DNA of 64,000 nucleotides from Carcharhinus amblyrhynchos (Eukaryota), in the NCBI GenBank assembly GCA_965287045.1, contig OZ336903.1, positions 1,116,001 to 1,180,000 on the forward strand, in the 5' to 3' direction. The notes below the pieces were generated by a model that was given only the letters and a program-made list of their open reading frames with translations, was not told the DNA's origin and searched no databases. Positions 13,008 through 61,206 of the stretch are shown piece by piece. Every line of letters starts with the position of its first letter. The first letter of the stretch is position 1. The translations under genes and the position numbers were made by a program.

Positions 13008-13053
13008 ATGCTGCGCTCCTTCCTGACTCTAATTGCATTGCAGCTTCTCAACT
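13008..13053 (+). CDS. Gene A exon 1, signal peptide [15 protein letters not shown]
   Basis: ATG in good context (GACGATG), hydrophobic leader, phase-1 donor GTGAGT joining exon 2 in frame (..[14 protein letters not shown]). Confidence 0.8.
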
Positions 13054-16000
13054 GTGAGTTATTATTGATTGAAAGTATCCCGATGTCTGTTGAGAATTCA
13101 CTGACATAAAATTTTAGCATGTCTATATGTGTATATATATGTTATATATATAGAGAGAGAGAGATTTCGGAATAAAAATGTTGGTGACCGATGTCAAGGA
13201 AAGTTGATGATTTGAATAATAAGTGTCATCTAGAGGTAATGGGATATTAATGTGCATCAATTTACAATGAGAGGAGGCGAGTTCAGTGTCTGAACAGCTG
13301 AAGGATGAAGAAGTGCTCAGCAAATTGAAATCATACTTGCTTATGCGTTTGAATTATTGTAAAGCTGAAAGGAGTCTAGGACAGGCTTTTGGGGTTAGAC
13401 TGAATTGGTTTTATTCCACCCGGCACAGTCAGTTTGGACCGGGGCCGAACACTTTTGCCGAATATTGCTCTGAGGCCACAAAGGCTCAATGGAAATTGTT
13501 TTTGATTGCCGTCTACCTGACATTGGTGTGCAGAATAAATAAATTGGAGTTGAAAATCAAAATGGACTATCAAATCTAAATCTGGAAATTTATACATTTT
13601 TTTTTCCGGCAATGTTTTGGATTCTCCGCTCCACTTAGGGAAAAGGCTCTATTATATTCAAATGAACCCTTCGTTGTTATAAGTGTGTATTGGAATTGGG
13701 AGTTTAAGTAGCAGAAGCTTCAGTTGGCGAATAATTTAGATTCCCTTTTTTTAATTATTTCCTTTCAAACATATTTAGAATGTAGAACATCTGATTAATG
13801 CATGTTTTAATTTCTCGGCCGAGACTTAAGGCAACCTGAGATTTAAATACAAAATTGAATAGAAATGCTTTATTCGCACATGGACAACATATTACTGTAA
13901 AACCTCTATTCGGACTACTTGATTTGTGTTGGTACAAATTAGAGCAGTCGCTGTTAGAATCTGCTGAAAGTGAGTTTGAGTGGAAGCCAACTCACTGCGT
14001 TTTAAAATAGAGGAATTTTGGCGAGGACCATCCACACATGCTTCTCCTGATATTGTAATCTGACCTTCATGAGAGGATTAGATAGCGGGGACAGTGAGGG
14101 CCTTTTTCCTCGGATGGTGATGGCGAACACGAGGGGACATAGCTTTAAATTGAGGGGTGGTAATTATAGGACGGGTGTCAGAGGCAGGTTCTTTACTCAG
14201 AGGGTAGTGAGGGCGTGGAATGCCCTGCCTGCAGCAGTTGTGGACTCGCCAAATTTAATGGCGTTCAAATGGTCAGTGGATAGGCATATGGATACAATTG
14301 GAATAGTTTAGGTTAGAGGGTCATTGCATTGGTTCCACTGGTCGGCGCAATACCGAAGGCCCAAGGGCCTGTACTGCTCTGTAATGTTCTATGTTCTATT
14401 TCTCATTACATTTTCCGTCAGAACCCCGTGTAGAGATAAAACAAACAAATTGTTTGAAATAGGTGTTTCAGCCTCAGAGTGTTGGGCTAGTTCTGTGAAT
14501 AACGCATTTTAACACATTAATATGAATTGCAATTAAGTATGGCATTAATTAGTTTCATTAATATGAAGAAAATACTTATCTTGTTATGTTGATAATGTAA
14601 TTTGCTCAATTTGCATGATTTGCCTGGTCACTTTTGTTGCCCAAATGCCTCATATCTCCGACAGGAATATTACCAGAATGTTTTACATTAATATTTCTAT
14701 GCAGTGATTTGTTTCAGGTTTTAATTATTTTTTATTTCTCAAGATGTATGCCAGGGTTTCATGTTCTCTGTGTCTCATGCCGTTTTCTGTGGCACTTCGA
14801 GACATGTTCTTTCACCACCTTCCACAGGCCAAGTAGTTTAGTTCCGATTTAAGTTGTTAACTTGGTTGTTGTTTAAGTTGTTCAGTTGGTTCATTTTCTC
14901 TCGGTTCCCAACGTGCCTCTTTAGTTATATTCATTAATCCGAATGTCGCTGAAAATGCTGGTTAACTGATAGAGAAGCGCCCCATTCCTGTTATCAAACA
15001 CTTCACACAGTAAAGGACCGAGAGTCCGCGAAATACAGTCTGAAAAAATACTGTTTGGACTTTGCACTTGCTTGAAGGAACATGTCTTATAAAAGAAACA
15101 AATGCAATGTTGCAATGTAATAAATCCTGTGCCCAATAAACCCATCTCATTAAAATTTGACGTTTTTGTTGCTACTGAATCGCCAGTTAGCTCGCAGTTA
15201 TGAAGTGAATATTCAAATCGTTGTCTTAACTTGTAGAAACTCTTTAGAATATACTTTGAGCAAATTTGCATTTTTAGTTCATTAGTCTCCACAAAACAGC
15301 AAATGAATAAGAAACTGAGATTTGCCACGTAATCGAACTCAGATACGGCGGCAGATATAATTAAATACTCCACTGGGTCTGTTGTACAGATGGAACAGAC
15401 ATGAATTGAAATTCTATCCGAACAGCGCAGTCTGGGTGTAGATCGCCGCCGCTGTTAGAATAGCATCGATTGCCGAATGGAATCTACGTGAATTAACCGC
15501 TTGCAGAATCCCAGTAAAAGTTCTAGCTCCTATCAATAGAATGCGTACACAGATTTGGGATAGATATTTCTCAGTGGAGGAGCTGTATGCTCGTCCTGTG
15601 GGACAGTGAGCTGCCATATGTTAAACAAATTATTTTGAGTTGGAGTAGTGGACACGGCTGTAAATATTGAAAAGTTAAATATTAAATCTAAGTGGGACCA
15701 ACATTGCTTTAACTGGCATATTAAGCCATATATTTAATATCAGTCGCTCCAGCGAAATAATGGATAAGTGAAAAATCCGACTTCTTCCGCAAATTGGCAG
15801 CGTGAGATTTTCTGATTGCTGTTTGGAGCAATGAGCTTTAGAAATCACAGCAAAGCTTTCTAAACCATACACTAATATCAGCTTTGTGTATCAATCAGTG
15901 GATACTTATCACCCTCTTCCCAGACACTCTCAACATCCACTGAACTTTCTGTTGTTTATACTGAGCTATGAGAACTCGTCACTCATTCTAGATTGGCAAA

Positions 16001-19000
16001 CTCCACCGTTTCCGTGTAAAATGTTTTGAGCCATTTTGTACCGTTAGCTTCGGCCTCCAGACCCCAGAAAAAATATCACCCTGTCTCGCAAAAATTGGAT
16101 AAGTGTCCGCTTACATTCTAAATCTGATATCTTACAAGTGTTAATTTGGTGTGACCATACATTTGAAAATTATAGTTCCACGAGCGAATCATAATGTGTC
16201 CTTCCTGCTGCGAGCTAAATGGTCCCTTGTTTCACGGTGGTTTCCAACTCCGAATACGATGTTATCTAATTAATTCCACTCGTAACACCGACATTTATTT
16301 ATTACGTGTTAGGTCTCATAGTTTAAGTTAAAATATTATTGATAGATCGAATAGTCTGTCACGGGGAGATGTATTTGCTGCCTTACTGTTTTATGCAAAT
16401 AGCGTGTTGTTGTCTTTAAATGGGCCTACATTTTACAGTCCCAAAATTTCCATGCCTCTGTATCTCTTACAAAAAAATGTTAATACCCCATATTCAGCCA
16501 AGGCCTTTGCACTCATTATTATTATGCAAATTCTTGTGAGGTCAGTGTCCCTGGCAATGGCAGCATTTATTGTCTGCACCCAGATGTCTTCAGGAATTGA
16601 TCTCTGAACCTTTTTTGCTGCCTGGCTGCAGTACATGATGCACTGGTGCAGGCAGAGTGACATTAGGGATTGAGCTCACATGAGAATGAAGCAACCCCGA
16701 TATTGTCCGAACTCAGTATGTTGACAGACTTCGAAGGGAATGCACAATTCAGGGTATTGCTGTAGGCCTGACCTTGCACTTCTCGGTGGTAGAAATTGCG
16801 GGTTTGGTATGAACTGCGAATGAGTTTCGGTCATTTGTTGCTGTGTATCATCTACAAGGTACACAAATGATTCAGGTGACGGCTGGGATTTCCAGCAAAT
16901 CAGGCTGCTGACCAGCACCTTCTATTCCATTGTTTGTTCGTGTCATTAGTGACCTGTTGTAGGAGGAAAGGGGGAACAAGCTTCAGGTGAGGGGGGAAAG
17001 TTGAACGAAGATGTGTGAAAGAAGCTCAGAAAGTAGTGCATGCCTGGAACGCGCTGCCAGAGGAGGTGATGGAAGTTGACACATTAGCAACATTTAAGTG
17101 TCATCTGGATGGTAAATGAATAAGGAGGAAATAGAAGGATACAGATGGAAATAGGACAGCATGTTTTTTTTCTTAGTTGGGCATCATGATGGACAGGGGA
17201 TTGATGGACCGAAGGGTCTGTTTCTGTGCTGTACTTTTCTTTATTCTGTGTTTTTGAAATGGGTCACTGATTCAGTGGGAGATTTACTGAACGCTGAAAA
17301 GTGGAGCAAAAAATAGAAAGACGGAATGCATGAAGAGGGTCCAAAAAATTCCAGTTGGATCGTCGAAATTGTGAACATTTTGAGTAAATATTAAAATGTT
17401 TTCCCACAATTCTGGCAATGAGAACAACATAAGTGAGTGCTGTGCGATACTGTTTGTGAAGAGTTAATAAGGATAGCTGAGGATTGTCTGCATTGCAAAT
17501 AAATGTCACACTGTCCGTATTGTGGACGGTGGTGCAGAGATATTCGAGTAACTTTGTCATTGTTAATCTGTGGATCAAGTTATAAATTTCAGCAATCGAA
17601 CCGGAGACAAGAATCACTGCCCTGTTGATTCTATTATGTAAACTTGGAACTAAAAGTGATTAGGAGATTTGACTGACACAAAATGTCTTGGAATAGGGTT
17701 ACAGGTGGCTGATATAAAAGGAATGAGACAATGATATTCAGTGGCCATGAGACAATGGGTGTGGTAAATGAATAAAACTTTTTAACATCAAGTGCTTGTA
17801 AATCGTATAGTGAAAGAATAACACAAATCCTCGGTGTTGGCTTTGTGATGTTTGGTTTTTGCACTTTCATTCATCTCGTGTTCCAGAAAAGACTAATTTT
17901 CAAAATTTCATTTCAGGCAGACCAGGGAACAGCCAGGCTGATCCATCAGGTAATCGCCCTCCAAGTTCATATCTGATATTTTACTGCACTAATCCATCCA
18001 ACTGAATGATAAATCACTGAGACAATTTCAATATCTTTGCGTTCAATGGTTCGGTTGAATATCTGCCTGGCAATTGTGAAGGAAAATGTTCTTGCAATGT
18101 TTTCCTGTACATCTATAAGTTCTGTTCCCTAATTCAAAAATTAGTTCCCCGAGGAGCAGGGTGAGAGGCAAATGGTTCCCACAGCGGTTTCGAAATAAAG
18201 CTTCACTTCTCCAGTTACCAGCCAGCGTTGAAATTCAGTGCAATATGAAGCCCTTCCACCCCCGGTATATTCGGGATCCGCCGTAAACTCGCCGTATCTC
18301 ATAACCCCGGGAAGGGCTGGAGACTACCTGACTGTCCAATTCAGCCGGTTGCAGCAGGGTGAACCACCTGGTTCGACACTGGTGGCAGATATCGAATCCA
18401 TGCTAGGATTGGGATTCCACTATATTAGTCCCGGCAGTGTTGTGGACCGCGGACCATAACAGCCTTGACTTGTGCGGATTCAATCAAGTAAGCACCCATC
18501 CACACTCCTGCCTGACGCAGCCGGATGATGTTTCCAACTTCCAACTGATGTGCGGCTGTTTCCCACTGTCAATCCATATTCCCGCTTCCACTTGCAATGT
18601 CACAGGGGGAGGGATTGGAATCGGATACAACAGTGCCGTTGAAGGGGCGTCTTGATAAGTAAATAAATAGGGTGGGAATAGAGGAATATGGTCCCCAGAG
18701 TGGTAGGGTTTTTAGTTCAGTGGGGCAGTAAGGTCGGTACAGGTGAGGAGGGCGGAGGGGCCTGTTCCTGTGCTTTTTTTTTGTTCTTTGTCTCATATTA
18801 TCCCAGGGTTTGTTGAGATCCTTGACACACTCGATACTTGATTTGATTCCTATCTGACTATAGGGGTCATGGGTAGAGAGGTGGACTGGTGGTGTTGAGA
18901 TGGCGGCGCGGGCTCGTTGGGTCGAAGGGCCTGATTCCCGGGCTGATTTTGTTCTTTGTTCGTTGTTCTTTGACCTGATGCATCAACTGGCCAAAATAAA

Positions 19001-22000
19001 AACATAAGAACATAAGAAATAGGAGCAGGAGTAGGCCATCTAGCCCTTCGAGCCTGCCCCGCCATTCAATAAGATCATGGCTGATCTGTCGCTGCTCAGT
19101 TCCACTTTCCCGCCCTCTCCCCATAACCCTTAATCCCCTCTCTTATCAAAAACCCATCAACCCGCGTCTTAAAAATATTTAGCGAGGCAGCCTCCACCAC
19201 TTCAACGGGCAGAGAATTCCAGAGATTCACCACCCTTTGAGTGAAGAAGTTCCTCCTCAACTCCGTTCTAAACCGCCCCCCTTTTATCTTGAGGCTGTGC
19301 CCCCTAGTCCTACTGTCTTTTTTGAGCGGGAAGAGCCTCTCCACCTCTATCCTATCCATCCCATTCATCATCTTACATGTCTCAATGAGATCTCCCCTCA
19401 TTCTTCTAAACTCTAACGAGTACAAGCCCAGTTTATTCAGCCTCTCCTCAAAACTGTATTTATTTTTATTTCACAGAGACGGTGAAGCTGAGACTGGCGA
19501 ATGGGAAGAGTCGGTGCGCAGGAAGAGTGGAGATTTACTACAAGGGAAGTTGGGGGACTGTGCGTCATCGCCTCTGGGACCAGCGGGACGCCGATGTTGT
19601 GTGTGGGGAGCTGGGCTGCGGGACCGCGCTCTCTGCACCAGTCGGGACTCTCTTTGGGGGAGGATCCGGACCCATTGTGACGGGAGGTCTTCAGTGCGAA
19701 GGGAACGAGACCGCCCTGCGGGAATGTCGCTCATTTCAATGGGGTCACCATCTCTTATCGCACTCCTATGATGCCGGTGTGATTTGCTCAGGTAAAAATA
19801 AAGTCCATCATCATTGCCTGCTCTCCGGCAAAGGGCGGATAAAGTATTCTGAGACTGTACACAGTCGTAAAAAGAGCGGTGATTATTTTCAGTATTCTGA
19901 AAATAGAAGTGTTGTTAGATTAACACCAGGATTTAAGTTTAGAATAAAGTCAAAGCAATGAGAGTCCAAAGACGAGCGGGCTAGGTTGACTGACCATTCT
20001 AAATTGCCCTGAGTGTCTCGGGATGCACAGGTTAGAGGGATTAGTGGATAAATATGTAGGGATATGGGGATAGGGCCTGGGTGGGATTCTGGTTGGTGTA
20101 GACTCGATGGGCCGAAAGGCCTCTTTGTACACCTTAGGATTCTATGATTTCTGATTAAAGAGAGTGATTAATAATTACCTCAACCGTGCACAGGCCCGTT
20201 GTGTCCTTGAGCTGAGCGCTTGCTGTTAGCTATATTCAGGAGGAGTTGTTCACTCCTGGTTCCTCACTGTTCAGTTCCGATCACCATTAAACAAATAATG
20301 AAGAATTCCAGGGCCACACAGAGCAAATCCTGGACAACAATCAGGCTTCTGCTGAGTAACCGTTTATCTTCATCTATCCGCAGCGTGTGGTTTATTTCGC
20401 AATTTTAACATAAATTCAAATCGTCCGATTGTAAACGACTTTTTTTCGCTTCAAAGTCGAGAAATTGTACCCACAAATGAAAATGTGGTTCGAACCCCAG
20501 AGATACGGTCGGAGGCATCCCGATGCCCCAAACCTTCTAAATCTCCACCGCCACCCCTTCCCCAGTGCCTCATCCGACACAACCACACGCCTGGAGACAG
20601 GGACGGACCTGTCACCAACCACCAGGGGCGGGGTGGGGTGAGGTGGTGGGGGGTGCGGACGGACCTGGGAGGAGAGCGAGAAAGAGTCCCGGGCGGACTA
20701 ATCTGTCCCGGTCTTGCCCGTGCAGAGTCAAAAGGTCAGGCATGCTTTGATCGGCTGGCTGTGTACCGAAGTACATTTAAGGGGAGTCGGGATCATTCGG
20801 CACTCGGTCAGAATTGGGGCTGTCTCTGAATTAAATCCGGGTGTCTCGGTCCATGTGTTTGACATTTACTGACTATTGATTGCGGAGGCCATAGAGCGCT
20901 TATCCAGTCACTGCGGCTACTTTCAGAGCAGCAATCAGTGGCCAGATTGAAGGTGTTCCAAGAGCGGAGTGAGGATGAGAAGGGTCTGGAGGAGAGTCAT
21001 GCGGATTGGAAACTTCCCTCTATTCTTCCCTCGCCACTAATTCTGCCACAGCTGCTGAATTGTTCCAACATTTTCTGATTTTGTGTGAGAGGGGACTGGC
21101 TGGATATCCCCTGTCTCTCCAGGCGTCTTGTTTTAATAACTGTCATGTAAATCCTCGTCCTAAAATGTTTGACCCTGTTTAGAAACTTATCTTCCTCTCA
21201 CTCCCCGAATCTGGTGAATAACAACTGTTCCTACATGATTTCCACTCGTGGCATTTTTTTTTCGGACAAGTTTACCTTTCGCGTTTACCAGCGGGAGAAA
21301 TCAGAAATGTCACTGGGAGAGAGTTCCATTCAAATGTGCGGCAGCCGATATTTTATTCAGAATAAAATGAAGGGAGATCAGTTGTTTTAACATTTAACGT
21401 CGCTGCAGCTTCAGGCTGATTTCAGACAGTGTAAACTGATAGAAGGAGATGGTTTCTCGTCTCAGTAACCAGTAGCCTGGGACACTCCCACTGGACTGCT
21501 TTCCAGAACAGGACACCATTTCAGTGACGCAGTTATTGTTCATTCCCATTCCAGATACGGAATAAACAATGTTCCTGAAACTTGAAGCAGAAGCTGTCCC
21601 CCTTCATGTTCTCGCCGTCAAAATAGAAATGCTAAAATTCTAGGACTTTTGCTTACGTTTTGGACGTGACCTTTACATTTTACCTGTGCCCATGGACCCT
21701 CAATAATGCTCGAGTGTTGTTTGCTAATCACCGTTTCGACATTCTGGGATCCATCGTTACATTTCTGGTTGAAGTAATTTCAGAACGTCCATTCTCAACA
21801 CGCTTTAGCGCCGAAAATCAAATATAGAATTCCGTTTGATGTCTATCAGTTAGAAAGTCCTGGGTAAATCATTCGAAATGACATTGATTCAGGTCCGCCT
21901 GTTGGTCATTGTAAATTTCCCATCAACAGGCGGTAGGGAGCAGGAATACTCAGAATGTATTGCGATAAACCAGCAGTCGGTTCAGTGTAAGTCCGGATGG

Positions 22001-25000
22001 GAAAGAATGATCCAGATGAATCGCTGTAAGAATGAACACGGTTTCGGGAGAGAATAATAATTGACACATTTTGAACTTGATGAAACATGTTTTATTATAG
22101 AATTTCTTAATACAGAAGAATGGTAATCAGCCCGTCAAGTGTCCCTGACAGGCTATCGAATCCAGGTCGCACCCCATGTTTTTACCTCTATAATTCCCCT
22201 GAACGATTCAACTTTACATTAAGGGGGAGCTCAGGGGAACCCGATTCAGAACCAATAATGATAGAATCTATTTAACAGGAAGTGAATATGTTTTGGTAAT
22301 AATTAGTGTTTTGTGATTTGTTGTTATTCAGCCAACAGGTTTCCAAAACTAGTATCCGGGGCTTTCCCATGTTCCGGCAGATTGGAGATCCATAACCATG
22401 CAGCTTCGAGCACAGTGTGTGACCGTGACTTGGATTGGAATGCCGCCAGAGTGATCTGTGCTGAGCTGCAGTGTGGAGTCGCCGTTTCAATTAGAAGTGG
22501 GGCTTATTTTGGAGAGGGCACTGGACTTATATGGAACGATAGATTTGAATGTAAAGGGAGCGAGACAAGCCTGATGGACTGCACCTTTGTTCCTGTAAAT
22601 CGGACCAGGTGCACCCACAGGAACGATGTCAGTGTGATCTGTTCCGGTGAGTACAGACTTGTGAAAATTAATTTAAAATGTTCTTAGTATTTCAACAAAG
22701 GAGAGATTGCAGATCTGTCCCTCTCTAACATGGACTTGTCTAACCAGATCTTCATATTTCAAAGGATGCACGCTTTTTACAGATAGGAAATGTTTACATT
22801 TTTATTAACGTTCTCAAATTAGCAAATTATTTTTGTTGATTTAGTGCCCAGGCCAGACATAGATTTCTCTGAAACATTTGACATGACATTCTTTGTGGAC
22901 CTGTCAGGTAGTCGTGTGTTGCCTCCCATGCCGTGATCCCACTGCAAAGTCTGTAGCAGACTGTAACTCTGCATCTAAAGAGAATATTGGCACAGCAGAA
23001 TAAATGAAGGCTTTGCATTTCAATTATCTTTCATCAAACAAAATAATTGGATGAGTTCAGTAACAGCATTGCAAGTTCATGTTTTACTTCTAGTGAAACG
23101 TGTAAAATTGGACAAATGTATGTTGGAGATTTCAAAGCATGGAAAACGCATCAATAATGCACATTATTCCCAAAATACTGCAATAGCTTTTCGAACGTCA
23201 TTTACTTGCTGAATTTCCTGGTGCGAGATGCTGTCTAATTTTGGAAGTGCATCTACCATTTTAGGCTCAGGTTATTGCTCCAGAGGATATCGTTGCATCA
23301 TAATGCAATGCTAAAACACTGCAGTTTATTTCAAGCATATTATGGACCTTCTCTATAGGCACTATATTCTGCCAATAGCAAAATAACTTTTGCCTTCAGG
23401 ATGGACTGCTCGCTTTGGGTTGAAGCACCTTCTTAAAAGCATCATATATGATGTTAATTCGTTCTAAATGATTGGTTGTGAATAGTGGGGAATGATTGGA
23501 GATGCGCATGCGATCTGAGTTCTCACCTTTACGCAAAAAAAAAATGCTGGCATGCCTTTCATTTAATTCCGATGTATAAATTATTTGTGTCTGTGTTTGT
23601 CCCTGAAACAGGAAAGCATGGGCTGAGATTGGTTGGTGGAAAGGACAGGTGCTCCGGCCGGGTGGAAGTGCCGCATGGAGAACACTGGGGGACGCTCTGT
23701 GATCTTTACTTTGATTTAGAAGACGCCACTGTGGTCTGTGAGCATCTTCAGTGTGGAGTGGTAGAGAAAATCCTGAGAGGTGCAGCCTTTGGGAAGGGAA
23801 ATGGGACAATATGGAAGGGGAAACTCAACTGCCGCGGGAACGAGTCCCGGTTGTGGGAGTGTCCGGTTTCATCCGTGGAAGAGTTTACCTGCTCACATGG
23901 AAATGACGTCAGTGTCATCTGCACGGGTGAGTCCCTAAATCAAGATAATGAAAACACGTGGTGCTGGGATTGAAGAGGATATTTCTACATTCGATCGCCC
24001 AAATGCTGGCCCATCCTCGAATTCCGTAAACATCTATTATCACTCTGTCTATTAATGTATTTGTTTCAGATTCAGAGCAGCCACGCTGGCTGTTCAGCCT
24101 CCTGTCTGACTGTACTCAGCAGCCTCTCATCACATCCTTCACCTCTGCACCAGAGGAATTGATCTGTTGGAAGATAATAATAATTGGATTTAACTTGTTG
24201 CACTGTAACCACTGTTCTCCATGTCTTTATATCCCTAGATGAAAACTGGTCACTGAGATTGATGAATGGGGGAAGTCGGTGTGATGGGCGGGTGGAGATT
24301 TACTACAACCACAGCTGGGGCAGAGTGCAGGACAGCCTCTGGGATCTGAATGACGCTAATGTGACCTGTAGACAGCTGGGCTGCGGCGAAGCGGTAACCG
24401 CCTATAACAATTCAAAGTACGGAGAGGGTGAAGGGCCTGTGTGGGTGAATGATGTCCAGTGTGAAGGTAACGAATCGCATCTCCGGAATTGCAGCACATT
24501 CACATTGAACCCGCATCGCAGTGGCAACATCGGCGTAGGAGTTCTGTGCTCAGGTGAATAAACAGTTCACTTTTCCAGAAACATACAGGGAATAATGTAA
24601 TCTTGGTCAACTGAGAATAAACGTCACTCCTTTTTGGGGAACATATAGCTGAGATATTTGACCCTGGCGCCCGGATACAGAACAGGACGTCACAGAAAAA
24701 AAACACATAGTTTGGAATATTATAACAACAACAATTTAATAAAAAAAGATATAACAACTTGATAAATCTCGAAGTAATTTCCCTCAGTAAATTGAGACCA
24801 ACGCAAATAAGGACAGTTTCGGCAGTGGAAATAATATGCTCATCAATGTGGGGTGGCTTACAACATCAGAGAGAAGGGAGAGAGGGGGCCATGTATGAGA
24901 AGAAAATTCCAATCTTATGTCCCAGTCCCCAAAATCATGAGCGTTAACTAAGTCTGAGGAAAGGCTTGCTGTGTGAAGTGTCAGATGTGACAGAAATCCA

Positions 25001-38208: not shown

Positions 38209-38315
38209 TTAATAATAATGCAAACGCTATTGCTATTATTAATAATATTATCCATCATTTTTATTGTTCACATCATTACCATCATCAAGATGATTCAACA
38301 ATATTCATTTTCTCA

Positions 38316-38605
38316 GGGCGGTCAGTGGCACTGAGGCCTCCCAGCACCAGAGATCCAGAGTTAATTGTGGTCCCGGGTGACCGTGTAGGGTTTGCACATC
38401 GTCCCGTTTTTGTGTGAGTTCCCTTTCACTGCGTAGTTTTCATCCCACAGTGCGGGTTATGTTGAATGGCCTTGCTAAATTGCCGGTTGGTGTCGGACAG
38501 ATTGGCGGGTTAAATATGTGTCACAGGGATGGGGCGCAGGTAGGGTTGTTGTCTCGCAAGCTCGATGGGCCGAATGGTCTCTTTCTGCACTGTGGTGATT
38601 CTATG
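38316..38605 (+). mobile_element. HE1-like SINE spanning the inner breakpoint of the inversion
   Basis: The head at 38316-38372 has a mirror at 40022-40080; the body and tail (GATGGGCCGAATGGTCTC) occur only in the spacer. Confidence 0.75.
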
Positions 38606-51400: not shown

Positions 51401-54400
51401 GTTTTTCAGTATTTTTTTTGCCATGCATTTTTCAACAGGTTTTTGTAGCTCACACTTATGTATTGGACTAATCAGAAAATGCTGCAAATATCAAATAGCT
51501 TAGCAGCATCAGAGGGCCACGAAATAGACGTAACCTTTCACATAGCGACCTGTGCTGGAAATTGCTGCTAAAATCTCCAGAAGCCCCCTTGTTTACTCAA
51601 TGAATTCAACTTCAAAAGCATCTAAAAACGTGAATGCAATCAAAACATTTCTAAATAATCGTGCACCTTCTAGTTCAGCAGCAGGGACCCACCACTCGTA
51701 CAGACCTGAACTCACTCCCACCCGCTCCCCTCCTACACCACCACCAGCCCTGACTCTTTGATCTTCATCGGATTCGCTTCAGTCAATAAAAAAAAGCTTC
51801 AAAATATCATGGCCATTTTCAAAGACATCATTTCTCTCCACCACTGATCCTGCCCCAACAGATCAAGCCCACCAGCCCAAGCGTCCATGATAACCAGCGC
51901 CAATGAATCCACTTAAGGGTTTCGATTTCCGTCACATCTGATACTTTTTTTTTGCAGCAAACCTTTCTACATCCTTGTTTAATGGTCATGATATTAACGA
52001 AAGGGATACAGTATTGGAATTCCAGCTTCAAACCTCCCTCACTCCTTTCTCCTTGTCTGTTGAAACCCACTCCTCTGATCAATACATTAGTCGCTCTTGC
52101 CGATCTTAACTTTATTTATGTTGGTCTCAATTTACTGCCGGAAAGGGCCGGAAAGTGGAACTGAGCCACGACAGATCAGCCATGATCTTATTGAATGGCG
52201 GGGCAGGCTCGAAGGGCCAGATGGCCTACTCCTGCTCCTATTTCTTATGTTCTTATGTTCTTATGAAATGAGCAAAATTGTTTAATGTGTCAAAATAGTT
52301 CAAACGAACTACGAGTTCACCCCAGCCCGCAAGCCCCCCCCCCCCCCACCGCCAACCCCGCAATGTCGTCCTGTTCTGCATACCCGCCTCATTGTCAAAC
52401 ATCTCATCTACGTTCTCCACAGGGGAAAAAAAATGAATTATATTTCCCGTTGACCAAGATTATATTTTTCCCTTTTTCGGGTCTGGAAAAGTGACCTGTT
52501 TATTCACCTGAGCACAGAACCCCTACGCCGATGCTGTCACTTCGATGCGGGTTCAATGAGAATGTGCTGCACTTCCGGAGATGCGATTCGTTTCCTTCAC
52601 ACTGGACATCATTCACCCACACAGGCCCTTCACCCTCTCCGTACTTTGAATTGTTATAGGCGGTTACCGCTTCGCCGCAGCCCAGCTGTCTACAGGTCAC
52701 ATTAGCGTCATTCAGATCCCAGAGGCTGTCCTGCACTCTGCCCCAGCTGTGGTTGTAGTAAATCTCCACTCGCCCATCACACCGACTTCCCCCATTCATC
52801 AATCTCAGTGACCAGTTTTCATCTAGGGATATAAAGGCATGGAGAACAGTGGTTACAGTGCAGCAAATTATATCAAATTGATATTACCTCCCACCAGGCC
52901 AGCTCCCCCGGTGCAGAGGTGAAGGATGTGATGAGAGGCTGCTGAGCACAGTCAGACAGGAAGCTGAACACCCAGCGTGGCTGCTCTGAATCTGAAGCAA
53001 ATATATTGATAGACAGAGGGATAATAAATGTTTATGGAATTCGAGGATGGGCCAACATTTGGGCGGTAAAATATAGAAATATCCTCTTTAATCCCAGCAC
53101 CACTTGTTTTCATTATCTTGATTTAGGGACTCACCTGAGCAGATGACACTGACGTCATTTCCATGTGAGCAGGTAAACTCTTCCACGGATGAAACCGGAC
53201 ACTCCCACAACCAGGATTCATTCCCGTGGCAGTTGAGGTTCTCCTTCCACATTGTCCCACTTCCCTTCCCAAAGGCTGCGCCTCTCAGGATGTTCTCTAC
53301 CACTCCACACTGAAGATGCTCACAGACCACACTGGCGTCTTCTAAATCAAAGTAAACATCACAGAGCGTCCCCCAGTGTTCTCCATGCGGCACTTCCACA
53401 CGGCCGGAGCACCTGTCCTTTCCACCAACCAATCTCGGCCCAGGGTTTTCTGTTTCAGGAATAAGCAAAGACCCAAATAATTTATACACCGGAATTTGCA
53501 GAACACACACCAGTTTATTTTTGTAAACGGGAAAACATACTTCATACTGGCATTCATAATCATTGCCCAATAATCATAAAAGATCACATCGACCTAATTA
53601 ATACAATTTGTGATGCTTTTAGGAAGGTGCTTCAACCCAAACAGAGCAGTCCATGCTGAAGAGAAAACGAACGTGTCATTGGCAGAATAGACTGTTTTTG
53701 GGCCAGATCCAGTATATAATTTAAATAAAATGCACTGTGTTTAAGCATTGCATTATGATGCGATTATTAAAAAATCTATATCTTCTGGAGCAATAAGCTG
53801 ACCATAAAATGGTAAGTGCACCCCCAAAATTAGACAGAATCTCGGACCGGCTAATTCAGGAAATAAACGTCTTTCGAAAAATTACTGTATTATTCTGGAG
53901 GTTCTGTCCACCATTGACACGTTATCCATGCTTTGAAATCTCCTCTAGACATTAGTACTTTTTTTTCCACCTGAAGAACTGCATGGAAACCGTACCCGTG
54001 CAATGCCTTTACTGAGCTCATTCAAGTCTGCACTCACCGGAACAGATCACACTGACGTCGTTCCTGTGGGTGCACTCGGACCGATTTACAGGAACAATGG
54101 GACAGTCTGTCAGGCTTGTCTCGCTGCCATCACATTCAAATCTATCGTTCCATATAAGTCCAGCGCCCTCCCCAAAATAAGCCCCTCTTCGAATGGAAAC
54201 GGCCACTCCACACTGCAGCTCAGCACAGATCACTGTGGCGGTATTCCAATCCAAGTCAAGGTCACACACTGTACCAGATTCTCTATCGTTATGGATCTCC
54301 AATCTGCCGGAACATGGGACAGCTCCGGATACTAGTTTTGGAAACCTGTGGGCTGAACAACAACAAATCACAAAACACTAATTATTATCAAAAGGTTAAT

Positions 54401-57400
54401 TAGATTGTATCATGACTGGTTCTGAATGTTGTTCCCCTTAGTTGCCTCCTTATCGAAAAGTGGAATTGTCGAGTCAAAAACGTGGGATACGACCTGTATT
54501 AAATCCTCTGTCGGTGATACTCAACGGGCTGAATGCCCTTCTTCTGCATGAAGAAATTCTATAATTAAAGATCTTTCATCAAGTTCAGTAGGTTTCAACT
54601 GATACTCTCTCCAGAAGCCGAATTCATTCTTACAGCGAGTCCCCTGGAACACTCTTTCCCCAACTCCCGTTGAGTTGAACCAACTGCTGGTTTATCTGAA
54701 TAAATTCTGAGTACAACTGCCCCCTACCGCCCGTTGATGGGAAAAATCACAAAGCGCAACAAGCGGACCAGAATCAATATATCGAATTATTTACCCAGGG
54801 GCGTTCTAACTGATCGGCATCGAACAAAATTCTATATTTGTTTTTCGGCGCGGAAACGTGTTGGGAATGAACGTTCTGAAAGGACTTCAACCAGAAATGA
54901 AACAGTGGATCCCGGAATGTCCAAATAATGATGAGCAAACTACACTCGACCTTTATTCAGCGTCTATGAGCACAGGTCTCAAAATGTGAAGCCAGATGCA
55001 TAGCATAATCAGAAATCCTCCTGGAATTTTAGTATTTCTATTTTGACAGCTATAATATGAAGGGGGAGAGTTTCTGCTTCAAGTTTCAGTAACTTTGCTC
55101 AGTCTATATCTGGAATGCGACAAACAATTTCGGGAACGGCAACCTTGTAAGGATCTCCTGTTCTGGAAAACAGTCCATTGCGAGTGTCCCAGGCTACTGG
55201 TTACTGAGTCTAGACAACATCTCCTTCTATCAGTTTACAAAGTGTGAAATCTATCTGAATCTGCAGCAGTTTTAAATATTAAAACAACTAATCTCCCTTC
55301 ACTTTATTTTGGAGGAAGTATCGACTCCCACACATTTGTTTAAAATCCAACCTCCTGTACAATTTGATCCGGCACAATTTATTCAAATCCAACGGAACAC
55401 TCCACCAATAACATATCTGATCTCTCTCCCTGACAAACTCTCAAGGGAAACTCCGTCCGAAAAAAAACAACACACGGGGAAAATCAGATTAAAAAAGCTG
55501 GAATTCGTCAGGTTCAGGGAGTGAGAAGGAGACAAGTTTCCAAATAGGATCAAACATTTTGAGAAGAGGATTTACATGACAGTTATTAAAACGACACGCC
55601 TGGAGAGACAGGGGATATCCAGCCAGTCCCCTCTCACACAAAATCAGAAAATGTTGGAACAATTCAGCAGCTGTGGAAGAATTAGTGGCGAGGGAAGAAT
55701 AGAGAGAAGTTTCCAGTCCGCATGACTCTCCTCCAGACCCTTCCCATCCTCACTCCGCTCTTGGAACACCTTCAATCTGGCCACTGATTGCTGCTCTGAA
55801 AGTAGCCGCAGTGACTGGATAAGCGCTCTATGGCCTCCGCAATCAATAGTCAGTAAATGTCAAACACATGGACCGAGACACCCGGATTTAATTCAGAGAC
55901 AGCCCCAATTCTGACCGAGTGCCGAATGGTCCGGACTCCGCTTAAATGTACCTCTGTACACAGCCAGCCATTCAGTGCATGCCTGACCTTTTGACTCTGC
56001 ACAGGCAAGATCCGGACATGTTAGCACACTGGGACCTCCCTCGACCACCTCCTCCCTCCTCATTCTCCGCACGCCTATCTGCGCCAAGCCCGCTCCCCCA
56101 CATTCTCCCCTCTCCCACCATATTTGCTGTCAGGCCTGTCTGTGTGTCCAGGCGTGTGGTTGTGTCGGTTGAGGCATTCGGGGAGGGGTGTTTGTGGAGA
56201 CCTCGAAGGTTTGGAGGATGGGGAGGCCTCCGTTTGTACCTCTCGGGAGGGATTACATTTTCGTCTGAGTGAACAACTTCTGGACCCCGATGGAAAACAA
56301 TCAGCATTAAGAATTGAGCGATTTGGAGTAAAGTTGAAATAGCAGAACAAACCAAATGCTGCGGATACATGAAGATAAACGATTTCTCAGCAGAAGCCTG
56401 ATTGTTGTCCAGGATTTGCTCTGTGTGGCCCTGGAATGCTTCATTATTTGTTGAATGGTGATCGGAACTGAACAGTGAGGAACCAGGAGCGAACAACTCC
56501 TCTCCTGAACACAGCTAACAGCAAGCGCTCAGCTCAAGGACACAGTTGTGGAAATTTTTAATCACTCTCTTTAGTCAGAAATCATAGAATACTACAGTGC
56601 AGGAAGAGGCCATTCTGCCCACCGAGTCTGCACCAAACACAATCCCACCGAGGCCCAATCCCTATATCCAAACACAATTATCCACTAATCCCTCTAACCT
56701 GTGCATCCCGGGACACTCAGGGCAATTTAGAATGGCCAATCAACCCAGCCCGTACATCTTTGGACTCTCTTTGCTGTGACTTTATTATAAACTTGAAATC
56801 TGGTGTTAATGTAACAACACTTCTACTTTCAGAATATTGAAATTGTTCACCACTCTCTTTACCGTCTCCGAATACTTTATGCGCCCTTTCCAGGAGAGCA
56901 GGCTGGAGACGGTGGACAGATTTTTTTTTACCTGAGCAAATCACGCCGACATCATAGGAGTGCGAATAGCCAGAGTAAGGATTGTGGCGAAGGTCACCCC
57001 ATGGATCTGAGCGACATTTCCGCAGGGCGGTCTCGGTCCCTTCGCACTCAACTTCTGTCGTCACAATGGATCCGGATCCTTCCCCAAAGTGAGCCCCGCG
57101 GGGTGCAGAGAGCGCGGTCCCACAGCCCAGCTCCCTGCAAACAACATCGCCGTCCCGCTGGTCCCAGTCAGTATCATCCACAGTCCCCCACTGTCCCCTG
57201 TAGTAAATCTCCACTCTCCCAGCGCACCGACTCTGCCCATTCGCCAGTCTCAGCTTCACCGCCTCTGTAAAATACCAAAAAAAAACAGTTCGTCGCCAGC
57301 TGATGCAACATGAACCAAACCAAGCATCGAATGTCTCCAGGATCTCAACAAGCTCTTTGATGGGTATAAGTGTTTTAGGCATGATAGGGGAGGGTCGAAA

Positions 57401-60400
57401 AGAGGAGGGGGAGTGGCGCTGAAAATTAGGGAGCACATCACAGCGGTGCAGAGGGAGGACAATATAGGGGTTCGGAATTGAGTCTCTGTGGGTGGAGTTG
57501 AGGAATAGGAAGGGAGCGATTACTATGCTAGGGGTGCACTACAGACCGCCCGACAGCCCGCGGGCAGTGGAAGAGGGTATGTGTAGAGACATTTTGGATT
57601 AGTGTAGGAAGAACAAGGTTGTCGTAGTGGGAGATTTTGATCTCCCTGAGGGGGATTGGAAGGTGCCTGGAGCTGGGGGTTCGGACGGGGAGGAGTTCGT
57701 AAGATGTGTATTGGAAGGGTCCTTGGAGCAGTATGTAGATAGCCCGACTAGAGAGGGGGCTATACTGGATTTAGTTCTGGGCAATGAGCCGGGTCAGGTG
57801 ATTGAAGTTGCGGTAGGTGAACATGTGGCTAATAGTGACCACAACCCTGTCTACTTTAGGATACTAATGGAAAAAGATGAGTCTTGTCCTAAGGGCGGGT
57901 GCTAAATTGGGGAAAGGCTAGATAAAACCGGATTAGGCAGGAGCTTATGGATACAGACTGGGAGAGGTTGTTGGAGGACAAGTCCACGTTAGGCATGTGG
58001 GAGTCTTTCAAGGGAAAACTGAAATGGGTGCAAGAAAGACATGTGCCGGTTAAGAGGAAGGATGGGAAAGGTAGAATTAGAGAGCCGTGGATCACTAGAG
58101 ATATTGACGACTTGGTCAGGAAGAAACGAAAGGCGTATGTTAGGTTTAAGCAACTGGGAATGGAGAGAGCAGTGGAGGAAGACAGAGCGAGTAGGTGGGA
58201 TCTCAAAAGGGGAGTTAGGAGGGCAAAAAGGGGGCATGAAATGGCTTTGGCAGACAGGATTAAGGACAATCCAAAGGCGTTTTACTCTTATGTTCAGAAC
58301 AAAAAGGTGGCTAGGGGAGAAATCGGTCCTCTCAGGGACAGACGAGGGGAATTGTGCTTAGAGTCCAAGGGAATGGTGGGATCCCGAATAAATACTTTGC
58401 GTCTGTATTCACGAAGGAGAGGGGCTTGATGTCTGGTACAGTCTTCGAGGGAGCTGTCGACCAATTGAAGGAATTATCCATTACAAGGGAAGAAGTGTTA
58501 GGGCATTAGGTAGCATTAAAACTGGTAAATCTCCGGGGCCTGATGGCATTTATCCCAGGCTGCTTAAGGAGGCGAGAGATGAAATTGCTGGGCCTCTGAC
58601 ACAGATCTTTGTCTCTTCTTTGGACACAGGTGAGGTCCCAGAGGACTGGAGGATAGCGAACGTTGTACCGTTCTTTAAAAAGGGTTGGAGGGATAACCCG
58701 GGTAACTATAGGATGGTGAGTTTGACGTCAGTGGTAGGCAAGTTGATGGAGAGGATTCTTAGGGATAGAATGTATGAGCATTTAGAGCGTTGCAATCTGA
58801 TTAGGGATACGCAGCATGGCTTTGTAAAGGGAAGTCTTGCCTTCCGAATCTGGTTGAATTTTTGAGGAGGTGACAAAAACGGTCGACGAAGGACGAGCCG
58901 TTGATGTCGTCTATATGGATTTCAGTAAGGCGTTTGACAAAGTCCCTCATGGTAGGTTCATTGAAGTGATTAAGGCTCATGGGATACAAGGCCAGGCATC
59001 TAGATGGGATGAGAACTGGCTTGCAAAGAGGAGACAGAGAGTAGTAGTGGAAGGGTCCTTTTCTAGCTGGAAGTCTGCCACTAGTGGTGTGCCGCAGGGC
59101 TCAGTACTGGGACCTCTTCTTTTGGTAGGATATATAAATGACTTGGAAGGGAGAGGAAGTGGTGTGATCAGCAAATTTGCAGATGACACTAAGATGGCTG
59201 GATTGGCGGGCAGTGAGGAGCAGTGTCTGGCAATACAACGGGACATTGATAGGCTGGTATATTGGGCAGGTACATGGCAAATGGAGTTTAATCCGGATAA
59301 ATGTGAGGTGATGCATTTTGGCCGGAATAATGTAGCGGGGAGTTATATGATAAAAGGTAAACCTATAACGAGTACAGAAACGCAGCGGGACCTGGGGGTG
59401 CAAGTGCACAAGTCTTTGAAGGTGGCAGTACAAGTGGAGAAGGTTGTGAAGAAAGCTTATGGTATGTTAGCTTTTGTAGGAACGCGTATAGAGTATAAGA
59501 GCTGGAGTCCAATGTTGCAGTTGTATAGAACGTTGGTTAGGCCGCATTTGGAGTACTGCGTCCAGTTCTGGTCGCCTTACTAGCGGAAGAACGTGGAGAC
59601 TCTGGAGAGAGTGCAGAGGAGGTTTAACAGGATGTTGCCTCGTATGGAAGGACTGGGTTATGAGGAAAGTTTAAGCAAATTGGGGCTGTTTTGCCTTGAA
59701 AAACGGCGACTGAGGGGGAATCTAATAGAGGTATATAAGATTATGAAGGGTATACATAGAGTAAACAGTGGTAAGCTATTTCCTATGTTACAGACGCACA
59801 ATACGAGGGTCCACGGATTAGGGTGAGGAGGGAGAGGTATAACACGGATAATAGAGGGAGGCTTTTCACACAGAGGGTAGTGGGGGTATGGAATGCTCTG
59901 CCAAGCAAGGTGGTGGAGGCAGGCACGCTGGAGTTGTTTAAGGGTTACTTAGACAGGCACATGAGTGGGTTGGAGATGGGAGGATATAGGAGATTGTTTT
60001 AAAAAAGGTTCATTAGCATAGGGACGTCCCTTGTAATGTATAAGGATGTGGTATGATACAAAGGTTTTTCTCTTTTAATTCACAGTCGGTCTGCCTTGTT
60101 GTCCAACGAGCGGCATACACGCGATAGGTCGTACTTGGCCTGCTCTTGAATGTTCGAGATTAGCCTAGTGCTTCATGTCGTTAGTGTGTGCTTAAACTGG
60201 ACCAGATGCTGGGCAACACGACAGCTCAGTGACTATCACTGTTTGCTGTACAGACACATGGATTTGGGCCGGTGTCTGTGGGAGTTTGTGCATTCTCCCC
60301 GTGCTTGCGTGGGTTTTCTCCGGGTGCTCCGGTTTCCCCCCGCACCCCAAAGATATGCTATTAGGCTGATTGGAGGTAATAAATTGTCCCTAAATTAGTT

Positions 60401-61206
60401 TCCCTCAATGTGGAATGTCATAAGCATAGATAAGGGTCATGGGTGGAGGGGGGACTGGTAATGTTAAAATGGCGGGGCGGGCTCGTTGGGCCGAAGGGCC
60501 TTTTCCAGGGCTGTTTTTGCTCTTTTGTTCTTTGTAATATGATACATATGAAGCGGGAATATGGATTGAAGGTGGGAACCATTCGTAAATCAGTTGGAAG
60601 TTGGAAGCATCATTCGGCTGCGTCAGGGACGAGTTTCGATAGGTGTTTGATTGATTCAATCCACACAACTCAAGACCGCCATGGTCCACGGTCCACCATA
60701 CTGCCTGGTCTAATATAGTGGAATCCCAATCCGAGTGTGGATTCGGCATCTGTCACCGCTGTTGAACCCGGGCCGCCCTGCTGCAGCCGGCTGAATGGGA
60801 CAGTCAGGTCGTCTCCAGCCCTTCCCGGGGCGGGAAGATGGGGCGAGTTCTCGGCGGAACCCTAATTTACCCGTGGTGGAAGAGCCATAGAATCACAGTG
60901 CATTTCAGCACTGGCTGGTAACTCGGGAAGTGAAAATGTATTTGCAAACGGCAGCGGGGCCACGTTGCCTCTCACCCTCCTCCTCGGGGACCTTATTTAT
61001 TGCCGTTCTGAATTAAAGATTTTCAGGAAAACATTGCAAGAACACTTTCCTTCACAACTGACATTGAACCAAACCATTGAACGCGAAGATACTGAAATTG
61101 TCTCAGGGATTTATCATTCAGTTGGATGGATTAGTGCAGTAAAATGTCAGATATGAACTTGGAGGGTGATTACCTGATGGATCAGCCTGGCTGTTCCCTG
61201 GTCTGC
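42424..61206 (-). CDS. SRCR gene B: paralog of gene A, 7 SRCR domains, TM, Tyr tail (leader exon beyond window)
   Basis: Exons (-): 61174-61206, 56932-57264, 54038-54352, 53135-53449, 52508-52822, 50751-51065, 49934-50251, 49792-49848, 49394-49702, 49228-49254, 48945-49061, 47838-47945, 44669-44779, 43975-44106, 42424-42470. All are phase-1 AG/GT and open. AATAAA at 42064-42069 (-). Confidence 0.9.
46295..46510 (-). mobile_element. Degraded DeuSINE/SacSINE1-like SINE
   Basis: CAGCACTGCA..TGTCAGACTTGATTT..GAGTTCTGGAATGGAACTTGGACC..TCTGAGTCAGAGGCAAGA resembles the recalled reverse strand of the SacSINE1 head. Confidence 0.5.
48945..49061 (-). CDS. Gene B transmembrane exon
   Basis: [39 protein letters not shown]. 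Confidence 0.9.
49394..49702 (-). CDS. Gene B SRCR domain 7
   Basis: ORF 49299-49763. Confidence 0.95.
49934..50251 (-). CDS. Gene B SRCR domain 6
   Basis: ORF 49902-50270. Confidence 0.95.
50751..51065 (-). CDS. Gene B SRCR domain 5
   Basis: ORF 50722-51015 extended to the acceptor at 51066. Confidence 0.95.
52135..52265 (+). mobile_element. Young CR1 3' tail, arm B-specific
   Basis: GGAAAGTGGAACTGAGCCACGACAGATCAGCC..(TTCTTATG)n. Confidence 0.88.
52508..52822 (-). CDS. Gene B SRCR domain 4
   Basis: ORF 52500-52802. Confidence 0.95.
53135..53449 (-). CDS. Gene B SRCR domain 3
   Basis: ORF 53088-53570. Confidence 0.95.
54038..54352 (-). CDS. Gene B SRCR domain 2
   Basis: ORF 54018-54371. 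Confidence 0.95.
56932..57264 (-). CDS. Gene B SRCR domain 1 (a-type, 6-aa longer loop)
   Basis: [44 protein letters not shown]. Confidence 0.95.
57356..60140 (+). mobile_element. 5'-truncated CR1 LINE (APE endonuclease + RT), pseudogenised, arm B-specific
   Basis: EN motifs GDFD/ILDLVL/SDHN (57627 ORF); RT motifs [46 protein letters not shown]; stops and frameshifts between the ORFs. Confidence 0.95.
60240..60535 (+). mobile_element. V-SINE-like element, arm B-specific
   Basis: GGAGTTTGTGCATTCTCCCCGTGCTTGCGTGGGTTTTCTCCGGGTGCTCCGGTTTCC core; GGGCCGAAGGGCC tail. Confidence 0.8.

Follow-up and report, generated by a model that had tools for sequence, protein, structure and literature searches.

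What are the two SRCR receptor genes that lie tail to tail in a 64,000-nucleotide stretch of the genome of the shark Carcharhinus amblyrhynchos (hereafter the window), and would receptors of this kind serve gamma-delta T cells as WC1 and its relatives do in cattle? The genes, A and B, are convergent and have 16 exons each, with GT-AG sites and phase 1 at all internal junctions, no internal stops and open frames for products of 963 aa (A) and 965 aa (B; Table 1). Both comprise seven group-B SRCR domains, each encoded by a single exon with 6 to 8 Cys, followed by a transmembrane (TM) exon and a Tyr-bearing tail, and neither model has a CUB or ZP part beside its SRCR, linker, TM and tail exons. 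The exon count given in a preliminary description of this DNA is correct for the final models, for which RefSeq models from Mustelus exposed the interdomain exon and the last exon; protein A is 80-81% identical to six of these Mustelus RefSeq proteins. That description's two intact genes with signal peptide, seven SRCR domains, TM and Tyr-bearing tail likewise hold as far as the open frames are concerned, except that the signal exon of B lies outside the window. A further exon considered between D3 and D4 (around position 24070 in A) was rejected since no in-frame donor was found for it and it is missing from the Mustelus models. As a side observation from presumed RNA reads aligned to positions 17800-34600, one contig joint matches the predicted intron between exon 2 and D1, though its reads come from other organisms, with RNA status, tissue and species off record, and it is not counted as evidence.

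Table 1. Features of the receptor genes A and B, in window positions
Feature	Position	Strand	Remarks
Gene A (array copy g14), WC1/SCART-type receptor	13008..35997	+	16 exons, open frame
A exon 1, signal peptide	13008..13053	+	start agrees with Mustelus models
A exon 2, linker	17917..17949	+	33 nt
A D1, WC1 'a'-type SRCR	19477..19791	+	no Cys2/Cys7; hypervariable across array
A D2, b-like SRCR	22332..22646	+	
A D3, b/c-clade SRCR	23612..23926	+	at 'c' position
A D4, 'n'-position SRCR	24239..24553	+	no Cys2/Cys7
A D5, d-like SRCR	25956..26270	+	canonical acidic cation site retained
A D6, e-type SRCR	26972..27289	+	tree 100/97
A interdomain exon	27375..27431	+	one Cys; between e and d', location as in bovine WC1
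A D7, d'-type SRCR	27529..27837	+	canonical acidic cation site retained
A stalk exon	27976..28014	+	Pro/Ser/Thr
A transmembrane exon	28199..28315	+	mid-membrane Glu
A tail exon 1	30860..30967	+	AVYEEIDD
A tail exon 2	33707..33817	+	EYYTS
A tail exon 3	34315..34446	+	DCDDAE (Cys replaces Tyr of family motif)
A last coding exon and stop	35951..35997	+	gene end 35997
Inverted duplication of A/B 3' ends	33348..45150	.	33348-38372 vs 45150-40022, 87.5% over 5.2 kb
Gene B (array copy g15), exons 2-16	42424..61206	-	965 aa, open frame
B exon 1, signal peptide	window-equivalent 66459-66504	-	outside window, ~2.5 kb beyond edge
B exon 2, linker	61174..61206	-	
B D1, 'a'-type	56932..57264	-	6-residue insertion in third hypervariable segment
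B D2	54038..54352	-	
B D3	53135..53449	-	
B D4	52508..52822	-	'n' position
B D5	50751..51065	-	
B D6	49934..50251	-	
B interdomain exon	49792..49848	-	
B D7	49394..49702	-	
B stalk exon	49228..49254	-	27 nt
B transmembrane exon	48945..49061	-	
B tail exon 1	47838..47945	-	AIYEEIDD
B tail exon 2	44669..44779	-	EYYTS
B tail exon 3	43975..44106	-	DYDDAE
B last coding exon and stop	42424..42470	-	gene end 42424

A and B are not the lone pair for which they had been taken. They are among at least 23 neighbouring copies that form a 1.9-Mb array on the same contig (C34), as seen from 23 matches to the D4 exon with 89-100% identity between 0.17 and 2.04 Mb; 18 of the 23 copies are open and five are disabled, and the tail-to-tail arrangement occurs eight times. 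D4 is the most uniform domain of the array (mean identity 93.7%), while the number of tandem 'a' domains ranges from one to three per gene, and most multi-D1 paralogues have the linker exon 2 duplicated along with D1. The array is flanked by an IgM exon, an NLR and a lectin exon. No positional marker for a WC1/SCART locus was detected among the 148 of 553 flank ORFs scanned; TPI and FUOM families were not found, none of the searched markers was placed on C34, and EMG1 and a possible third calsyntenin sit on small unplaced contigs. Promoters of the subfamilies align at an ETS-like core and CATTGGT and share no SOX/TCF or RUNX site, so they say nothing on cell type. Literature searches restricted to sharks or elasmobranchs gave no description of the array. 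Multigene array and diversifying first domain (see below) are the strongest features of the locus, and the preliminary description contains neither.

The identity of the single domains was approached with trees built without mammalian SCART1, CD163, CD5 and CD6 sequences; mammalian SCART1 was also absent among the matches listed in protein searches. D1, which like D4 lacks Cys2 and Cys7 in both genes, groups with the a1 domains of cow, pig and mink WC1 and with a lungfish domain (91/87 and 95/87 in two trees), and the first domains of alligator and turtle form the sister group of this clade. Constraining D1 to DMBT1 is rejected (p-AU 0.016), and constraining it to n is not (p-AU 0.11); domain 'a' is considered diagnostic of WC1 (PMC2906472). 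Both D2 and D3 fall inside the b+c clade (100/99), where D3 leans to b in the trees and matches CD163 SRCR5 (b) with 112 bits vs 85.5 bits for SRCR6 (c), with an AU test that does not reject D3+c (p 0.37). D4 joins the n-position domains of alligator and turtle (98/96), and its label 'n' would draw on position, Cys pattern and these reptile domains. D5 is d-like, with a placement among the clades that the trees do not settle, D6 groups with e (100/97) and D7, ahead of the TM, with d' (97/94). The order a-b-c-n-d-e-d' proposed earlier is thus upheld for D1, D6, D7 and the n-position of D4, and the label 'c' of D3 is not supported.

No domain of A or B groups with DMBT1 or SSC5D-like domains in the per-domain phylogeny. 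The top PDB match of the domains is CD163; the five domains compared with its SRCR4 (D1, D2, D3, D6 and D7) score 33-66 bits against it, among their lowest values. With seven domains only, A and B have neither the h-i-j-k block and YREM tail of CD163A nor the m and l domains of SCART, the a-type domain being directly followed by the b-like D2. Pairwise best-match labels were dropped because most domains match generic d/d', and the ESM Atlas returned only generic SRCR clusters. We have high confidence in the family membership of A and B. Their place in the WC1/SCART branch of the CD163 family, already claimed in the preliminary description, is supported by the domain trees and the TM and tail profile. 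Judged from their domains, they appear to be a hybrid a...n...d-e-d' type rather than strict WC1, which has no domain n; genes of such a layout have been reported previously in chicken (PMC2906472).

The cytoplasmic tails point in the same direction. Three tyrosine motifs (YEEI, YYT and YDD) are collinear: YEEI was present in all 23 exons identified for tail 1, and the counts are 24 of 24 for YYTS and 22 of 24 for YDD(A/V)E; the DYDDAE once ascribed to both genes is found in B, and A lacks the YDD tyrosine. The Y-(Q/E)-(D/C/E)-(I/L) tail motif of WC1 is present in the array as YEEI, and phosphorylation of YEEL is required for the co-receptor function of WC1 (PMC2906472). A profile made from TM and tails of the array only gave 59 bits for alligator, 55 and 34 for turtles, 37 for short cattle WC1, 31 and 31 for pig and 31 for kiwi, but just 15-16 bits for two long bovine WC1 tails, while five of eight DMBT1/SSC5D-like tails fell below 0 and three were unscored. 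TM and tail of the shark genes are thus homologues of the WC1 tails of reptiles, pig and cattle. A mid-membrane Glu occurs in 23/23 TMs of the array and in eight of the 11 chondrichthyan TMs listed but in none of the nine bony-vertebrate TMs listed.

The most distinctive property of the array is the variability of D1, whose dN/dS (gene conversion ignored) is 1.20 with a whole-domain CI of 0.99-1.96, vs 0.32-0.58 for D2-D7; tail exon 2 also reaches 1.20, on tiny distances. At 24 D1 sites picked independently from 21 mammalian a1 domains, the ratio is 2.90 by tree counting and 2.68 pairwise (CI 1.66-5.51), compared to 0.86 and 0.71, respectively, at the other 80 sites. The variable columns of D1 overlap those of mammalian a1 (nine of 15 among 24 of 104 columns, p 9e-4), and entropy at six ligand-site positions known from SALSA averages 2.35 bits vs a domain mean of 0.66, a value not reached in any of 100,000 permutations; D2-D7 show no such excess at these positions (p 0.12-0.82). 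Some of the 36 D1 copies in this set belong to disabled genes and one is a fragment. The same pattern is found in Mustelus (12 D1) and Heptranchias (five D1). Diversifying selection is confined to D1 and centred on six SRCR ligand-bridging positions; the selected positions are those at which other SRCR domains contact their ligands via Ca2+/Mg2+. In WC1, too, diversity sits in domain a (PMC2906472).

Taken as a whole, the shark genes resemble ruminant and pig WC1 in forming a multigene array, in the N-terminal 'a' without Cys2/Cys7 that bears the diversity, in the b/c-d-e-d' cassette, in the interdomain exon with a Cys that separates e from d', and in TM pattern and collinear Tyr motifs. Unlike WC1, they have an n-position domain, a mid-membrane Glu, one cassette rather than two and one to three tandem 'a' domains rather than one, and no coding interdomain exon was found after D3. 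With the WC1/SCART hybrids of chicken, turtle and alligator (a...c-n-d-e-d'; PMC2906472) they share the 6-Cys n-position domain ahead of d-e-d', and alligator and turtle hybrids have the closest non-shark tails (55-59 bits), yet the reptile and bird first domains listed keep 8 Cys (two truncated models excepted) and these hybrids lack the TM Glu. SCART1 and SCART2 (CD163c-alpha, m-l-b-c-n-d-e-d'; definitions in PMC2906472) likewise have a domain without Cys2/Cys7 just ahead of d-e-d' and the Y-(Q/E)-(D/C/E)-(I/L) motif, but most mammals have one or two of these genes, whose m and l domains have no equivalents in A and B.

Which cells would use such receptors? Our preferred reading, which we consider somewhat better than an even bet, is that A and B belong to a 23-copy WC1/SCART-type array with a diversifying outermost SRCR domain and likely serve lymphocytes of the T lineage, most probably gamma-delta cells, as pattern-recognition co-receptors encoded in the germ line. 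WC1, bovine CD163c-alpha and mouse SCART2 all occur exclusively or preferentially on gamma-delta T cells (PMC2906472), and in cod spleen the tcrg/tcrd cluster has an m130-like gene among its markers (PMC9276791). Both observations speak against a diversified WC1/SCART-family array on other lymphocytes (NK/innate lymphoid, alpha-beta T or B cells) that might signal via a membrane partner through the TM glutamate instead of acting as gamma-delta TCR co-receptor, which we regard as unlikely but the most serious competitor. Everything shown here is indeed neutral as to cell type, and the TM Glu of sharks and other chondrichthyans, absent from the bony-vertebrate TMs listed, implies that these receptors may be wired otherwise than WC1. 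The cod gene, of unproven orthology to the shark family, is also found in an innate-lymphoid-like cluster and in GATA3+ cytotoxic cells, and mouse SCART1 has been reported in lymph node, trachea and lung (PMC2906472). The cluster-marker rows of a bamboo-shark atlas that we covered (8,645, T-subset table excluded; PMC11372145) contain no gene named WC1, M130, CD163, SCART, DMBT1, 'malignant brain' or 'scavenger', and this atlas reports low tcrd expression; these genes are not named in its text, in the text and one supplement of a nurse shark single-cell study (PMC10529500), in two chicken atlases or in the whale shark genome text.

Rather improbable, in our view, is a CD163-like scavenger role on macrophages or granulocytes, in which the receptors would bind and take up microbes or host ligands and YEEI would act as an endocytosis signal. 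YEEI does match the general Yxx-phi pattern, CD163 is the top PDB match and has the b/c-d-e-d' cassette, including b and d' domains, in common with A and B, and four of 15 Mustelus relatives among the matches listed are named M130-like. Against this stand the grouping of D1 with WC1 a and the WC1-type tail motifs, which are not shared by CD163A tails (PMC2906472), and CD163A, a haptoglobin-haemoglobin receptor, is a single gene in eutherians with no diversifying array. As anticipated in the preliminary description, automated names mostly suggest DMBT1 (11/15 Mustelus and 9/9 Heptranchias relatives among the matches listed), one Mustelus model is missing the TM exon, and DMBT1/SALSA shares the group B SRCR fold and a cation/ligand site that coincides with the hypervariable positions of D1 and is preserved in D5 and D7. 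Still, DMBT1 is secreted, has CUB/ZP domains and near-identical repeats rather than a diversifying tip and forms a separate clade; given also the rejected D1+DMBT1 grouping, the exon models without CUB or ZP part and the negative scores of those DMBT1-like tails that could be scored, DMBT1 family membership is largely refuted and mucosal or epithelial agglutinins of DMBT1/SSC5D type are the least probable reading of all. It is also very unlikely that D1 variation reflects escape from a pathogen exploiting the receptor, or a gene-conversion artefact, rather than a binding repertoire. Selection on the ligand face would suit escape as well as recognition, five copies are disabled, and the homogenised D4, D7 and signal exon (dS 0.05-0.10) show sequence exchange in the array; however, the non-synonymous excess persists when it is counted without a tree at sites selected on independent grounds, appears again in two other sharks and falls on columns that also vary in mammalian a1.

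If the shark array works as co-receptors in the manner of cattle WC1, the D1 of each paralogue, without its Cys2-Cys7 bond, would offer a different binding surface for microbial ligands, while D5 and D7 would retain a generic acidic site. A microbe would co-cluster receptor and antigen receptor, phosphorylation of YEEI by Src-family kinases would then boost the signal, and different cells might express differing subsets of the array. More tentatively, and less likely than not, diversified germ-line WC1-type co-receptors may be an ancestral component of gamma-delta T-cell recognition in all jawed vertebrates. Sharks would then have a large, clonally varied set in which the 'a' domain, present one to three times per receptor, has remodelled the ancient cation site of SRCR domains as three hypervariable, CDR-like segments, and an elasmobranch-specific intramembrane glutamate may link the receptor directly with a partner that carries a basic residue, for instance a TCR chain.

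[quoted passage not shown] A full shark array with the same variable first domain and tail motifs would date this design to the common ancestor of all jawed vertebrates. The array would also provide comparative immunologists with a candidate marker on the surface of shark gamma-delta T cells, at present concealed by 'DMBT1-like' names, and it predicts the residues that set the specificity of WC1 a1, i.e., the six cation-site positions and their loops.

Genes A and B, the two convergent WC1/SCART-type receptor genes of the window, had appeared in the preliminary description as a pair, but the exon of their fourth SRCR domain (D4 of D1 to D7, counted from the N-terminus) has at least 23 matches of 89–100% identity at 0.17–2.04 Mb of the 22.3-Mb contig C34, and they are thus two of at least 23 copies of an array. 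At least 7 further D4 matches (61–63% identity) lie near 8.5–8.8 Mb of C34 and at least 4 (50–54%) on contig C3, all of these counts being lower bounds with 150 of 418 candidates scored; 23 of the 27 matches to the transmembrane (TM) exon fall inside the array. From targeted tiles we annotated 23 array genes and 3 fragments, including eight tail-to-tail pairs of the A/B type. Frames are open in 18 of the 23 genes and interrupted by stops or frameshifts in 5 (checked on 14 exons). Of the 23, 7 have D1 as two to three exons in tandem, and D2 has been lost from 4. Because D4, the signal exon and the promoter are near-identical across the 23 genes (dS 0.048 for D4 versus 0.34 for D6), their sequences suggest exon-selective gene conversion.

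Receptor genes and related subfamilies
Feature	Location	Strand	Description
gene A	13008-35997	+	final model, 963 aa
gene B	61206-42424, plus signal exon outside window	-	final model, 965 aa
second subfamily	G000:C34:8.52-8.80 Mb (L081-L088)		7 copies, ~45 kb spacing
third subfamily	G000:C3:137.86-138.19 Mb (L089-L095)		4 copies

The second subfamily follows the overall plan of the array; in the two copies inspected, three a-like domains and a shortened SRCR domain accompany TM and tail exons, and one of these copies has a broken D3-type exon. In the C3 subfamily there are seven SRCR exons; the first encodes a divergent domain, and another encodes an n-position domain placed close to reptile n (88/70). 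The tiles examined there gave no TM match. Contigs C56 and C105 hold pseudogenes. About 17 kb past the last array gene lies the last constant exon of an IgM heavy chain with secretory tail (L102:2731-3189; G000:C34:2074731-2075189), followed by NLR pieces (NACHT, winged helix and HD2) split over different frames (L104:1651-3012, C34 ~2.094 Mb) and a borderline C-type lectin exon (L115:3503-3907, C34 ~2.206 Mb). Judged by these NLR and lectin pieces, the array adjoins an immune-gene-rich chromosome end; in chicken, WC1/CD163-like genes are reported on an immune microchromosome (PMC4988538).

A six-frame scan of the window, which spans G000:C34:1,116,001-1,180,000, recovered 14 SRCR-type exons in the two genes, which self-comparison showed to be arranged as an inverted duplication. 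That both are intact is borne out by open frames without internal stops and by internal junctions that are all GT-AG and phase 1, except that the signal exon of gene B falls outside the window. The interdomain exon and the last exon, recognised by alignment to Mustelus RefSeq proteins, have proper splice sites in both genes, and proteins of Mustelus asterias are the closest among the matches listed (80–81% over full length). Cys2 and Cys7 are missing from D1 and D4. A 43-bp minisatellite (~31 copies in its main block) occupies window 9730-11500, and a LINE reverse-transcriptase remnant (58858-59580) lies in the gene B intron between exon 2 and D1.

Among CD163-family domain classes, "a" identifies WC1, "n" identifies CD163c-alpha/SCART and "k" identifies CD163A/b; hybrids of the type a...c-n-d-e-d' occur in chicken (PMC2906472). 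We compared the shark domains with proteins of cattle, sheep, pig, marsupials, monotremes, reptiles, birds, lungfish, coelacanth, teleosts and other chondrichthyans; the searches supplying these references returned no mammalian SCART1 among the matches listed. Trees from FastTree (160 domains), IQ-TREE (100 of these, 60 dropped) and a third set of 64 rows were concordant, with deep forks weak because they rest on 104 columns. D1 groups with WC1 a1 of cow, pig and mink and a lungfish domain (91/87 in IQ-TREE, 95/87 in the 64-row tree). Placement of D1 with DMBT1 is rejected (p-AU 0.016), in agreement with the proposed WC1/SCART-side membership, and D1 with n is not (p-AU 0.11). D4 joins six-cysteine n-position domains of alligator and turtle (98/96), D6 joins e (100/97) and D7 d' (97/94), while D5 falls among d-like domains without closer assignment and D2 and D3 lie inside the b+c clade (100/99). 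Of the suggested order a-b-c-n-d-e-d', the labels of D1, D6 and D7 are supported, D2 is b-like and D4 stands in the n position, but c is not supported for D3: the trees put this domain nearer to b and its top score is against CD163 SRCR5, with D3+c not rejected (p-AU 0.37). The array receptors have an n-position domain and so are not strict WC1; they lack the m and l of SCART, and they match neither CD163A nor DMBT1. Their build resembles that of bird and reptile WC1-SCART hybrids.

The first domain D1 (DIVERSIFYING) has a pairwise dN/dS of 1.20 across 36 exons, including copies from disabled genes and one fragment, versus 0.32–0.58 for D2–D7, and of 1.40 by tree-based counting (CI 0.99–1.96) versus 0.47–0.78, all D1 estimates being made without a gene-conversion model. 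Tail exon 2 likewise gives 1.20, but at very small distances. Only D1 varies widely in length (104–110 aa), and it has 18 columns above 1.5 bits versus 0–10 in other domains. To avoid circularity, we chose 24 sites from 21 mammalian a1 domains (22 minus one misfiled e domain); there the shark D1 ratio is 2.90 (tree counting, binomial p 6e-10) versus 0.86 at the other 80, or tree-free 2.68 (CI 1.66–5.51) versus 0.71. D1 column entropy correlates with that of mammalian a1 (rho 0.57; control domains 0.18–0.43).

In SALSA, a dual cation site bridges the ligand (D1019, D1020, D1058, D1059, N1081, E1086) and D1023 and D1026 form a buried site (PMC7043408). When these sites are mapped via a bat DMBT1 domain, mean entropy at the six ligand positions is 2.35 bits in D1 versus 0.66 for the whole domain (0 of 100,000 permutations as high), and both buried aspartates are retained in 34 of 36 D1. 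D2–D7 show no excess entropy at these positions (p 0.12–0.82), and D5 and D7 retain the acidic set. Ligand positions likewise exceed the domain in Mustelus (1.18 versus 0.27, 12 D1) and Heptranchias (0.97 versus 0.30, 5 D1). This agrees with cattle WC1, whose diversity is located in domain 1 (PMC3511184) and whose paralogues bind Leptospira unequally (PMC5949365).

A profile of the TM and three tail exons, built from open-frame array genes only, scores alligator (59 bits), turtles (55 and 34), short cattle WC1 (37), pig (31 and 31), kiwi (31), platypus and mink (21 each), loach and wallaby (20 each) and lemur (18), and just 15–16 bits for two long bovine WC1 tails; DMBT1/SSC5D-like tails fall below 0 in five of eight cases, the remaining three giving no score. 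The motifs YEE(I/L), YYT and YD(D/N) follow in collinear order from shark to turtle to cattle. YEEI is present in all 23 tail-1 exons found in the array, YYTS in 24/24 and YDD(A/V)E in 22/24; the DYDDAE first ascribed to both genes is that of gene B only, gene A having DCDDAE. In cattle, co-receptor function requires the phosphorylated YEEL tyrosine (PMC2906472; PMC8356672). A mid-membrane Glu, unusual for a receptor chain, is present in all 23 array TMs (A: window 28199-28315; B: 48945-49061) and in 8 of 11 chondrichthyan versus 0 of 9 bony-vertebrate TMs among the matches listed, two more giving no pattern match. High-depth contigs of another organism join a stalk exon to tail-like sequence (window 28014 to 34371), and one Mustelus model (P0232) misses the TM exon; secreted forms are thus possible.

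What is observed is a multigene array with a family assignment, tyrosine motifs that are conserved and a tip domain whose ligand face is under selection. On this basis we propose a mechanism in which the D1 of each paralogue would bind its own microbial ligand, D5 and D7 would supply a generic cation-dependent site, YEEI would be phosphorylated when the receptor co-clusters with the antigen receptor, and expression would vary from cell to cell. In this role the receptors would work most like WC1. The cell type is the least secure part. WC1, M130, CD163, SCART, DMBT1 or scavenger names do not occur among the 8,645 bamboo-shark marker rows listed (PMC11372145), a dataset in which tcrd expression is reported as low and near-identical paralogues may have been lost in read mapping; this negative result weighs against a T-lymphocyte assignment or is neutral to it. 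In tongue sole, one T-cell marker is a "DMBT1"-named gene, LOC103393936 (56.8% versus 5.0%; PMC11372145 Supplementary Data 2), which may be a mislabelled WC1-type gene.

Shark proteins of the array type are already in databases, mostly as DMBT1-like, just as had been anticipated of automated pipelines: 11 of 15 Mustelus and 9 of 9 Heptranchias relatives among the matches listed bear such names, and a few shark fragments are called "antigen WC1.1-like". Among the matches listed for shark, cartilaginous-fish and elasmobranch literature on WC1, CD163, SRCR and DMBT1, which left subscription journals uncovered, no paper was found to describe a WC1/SCART array in chondrichthyans. The receptor array is real and more substantial than first reported and, because relatives also exist in teleosts, lungfish and coelacanth, the family spans jawed vertebrates.
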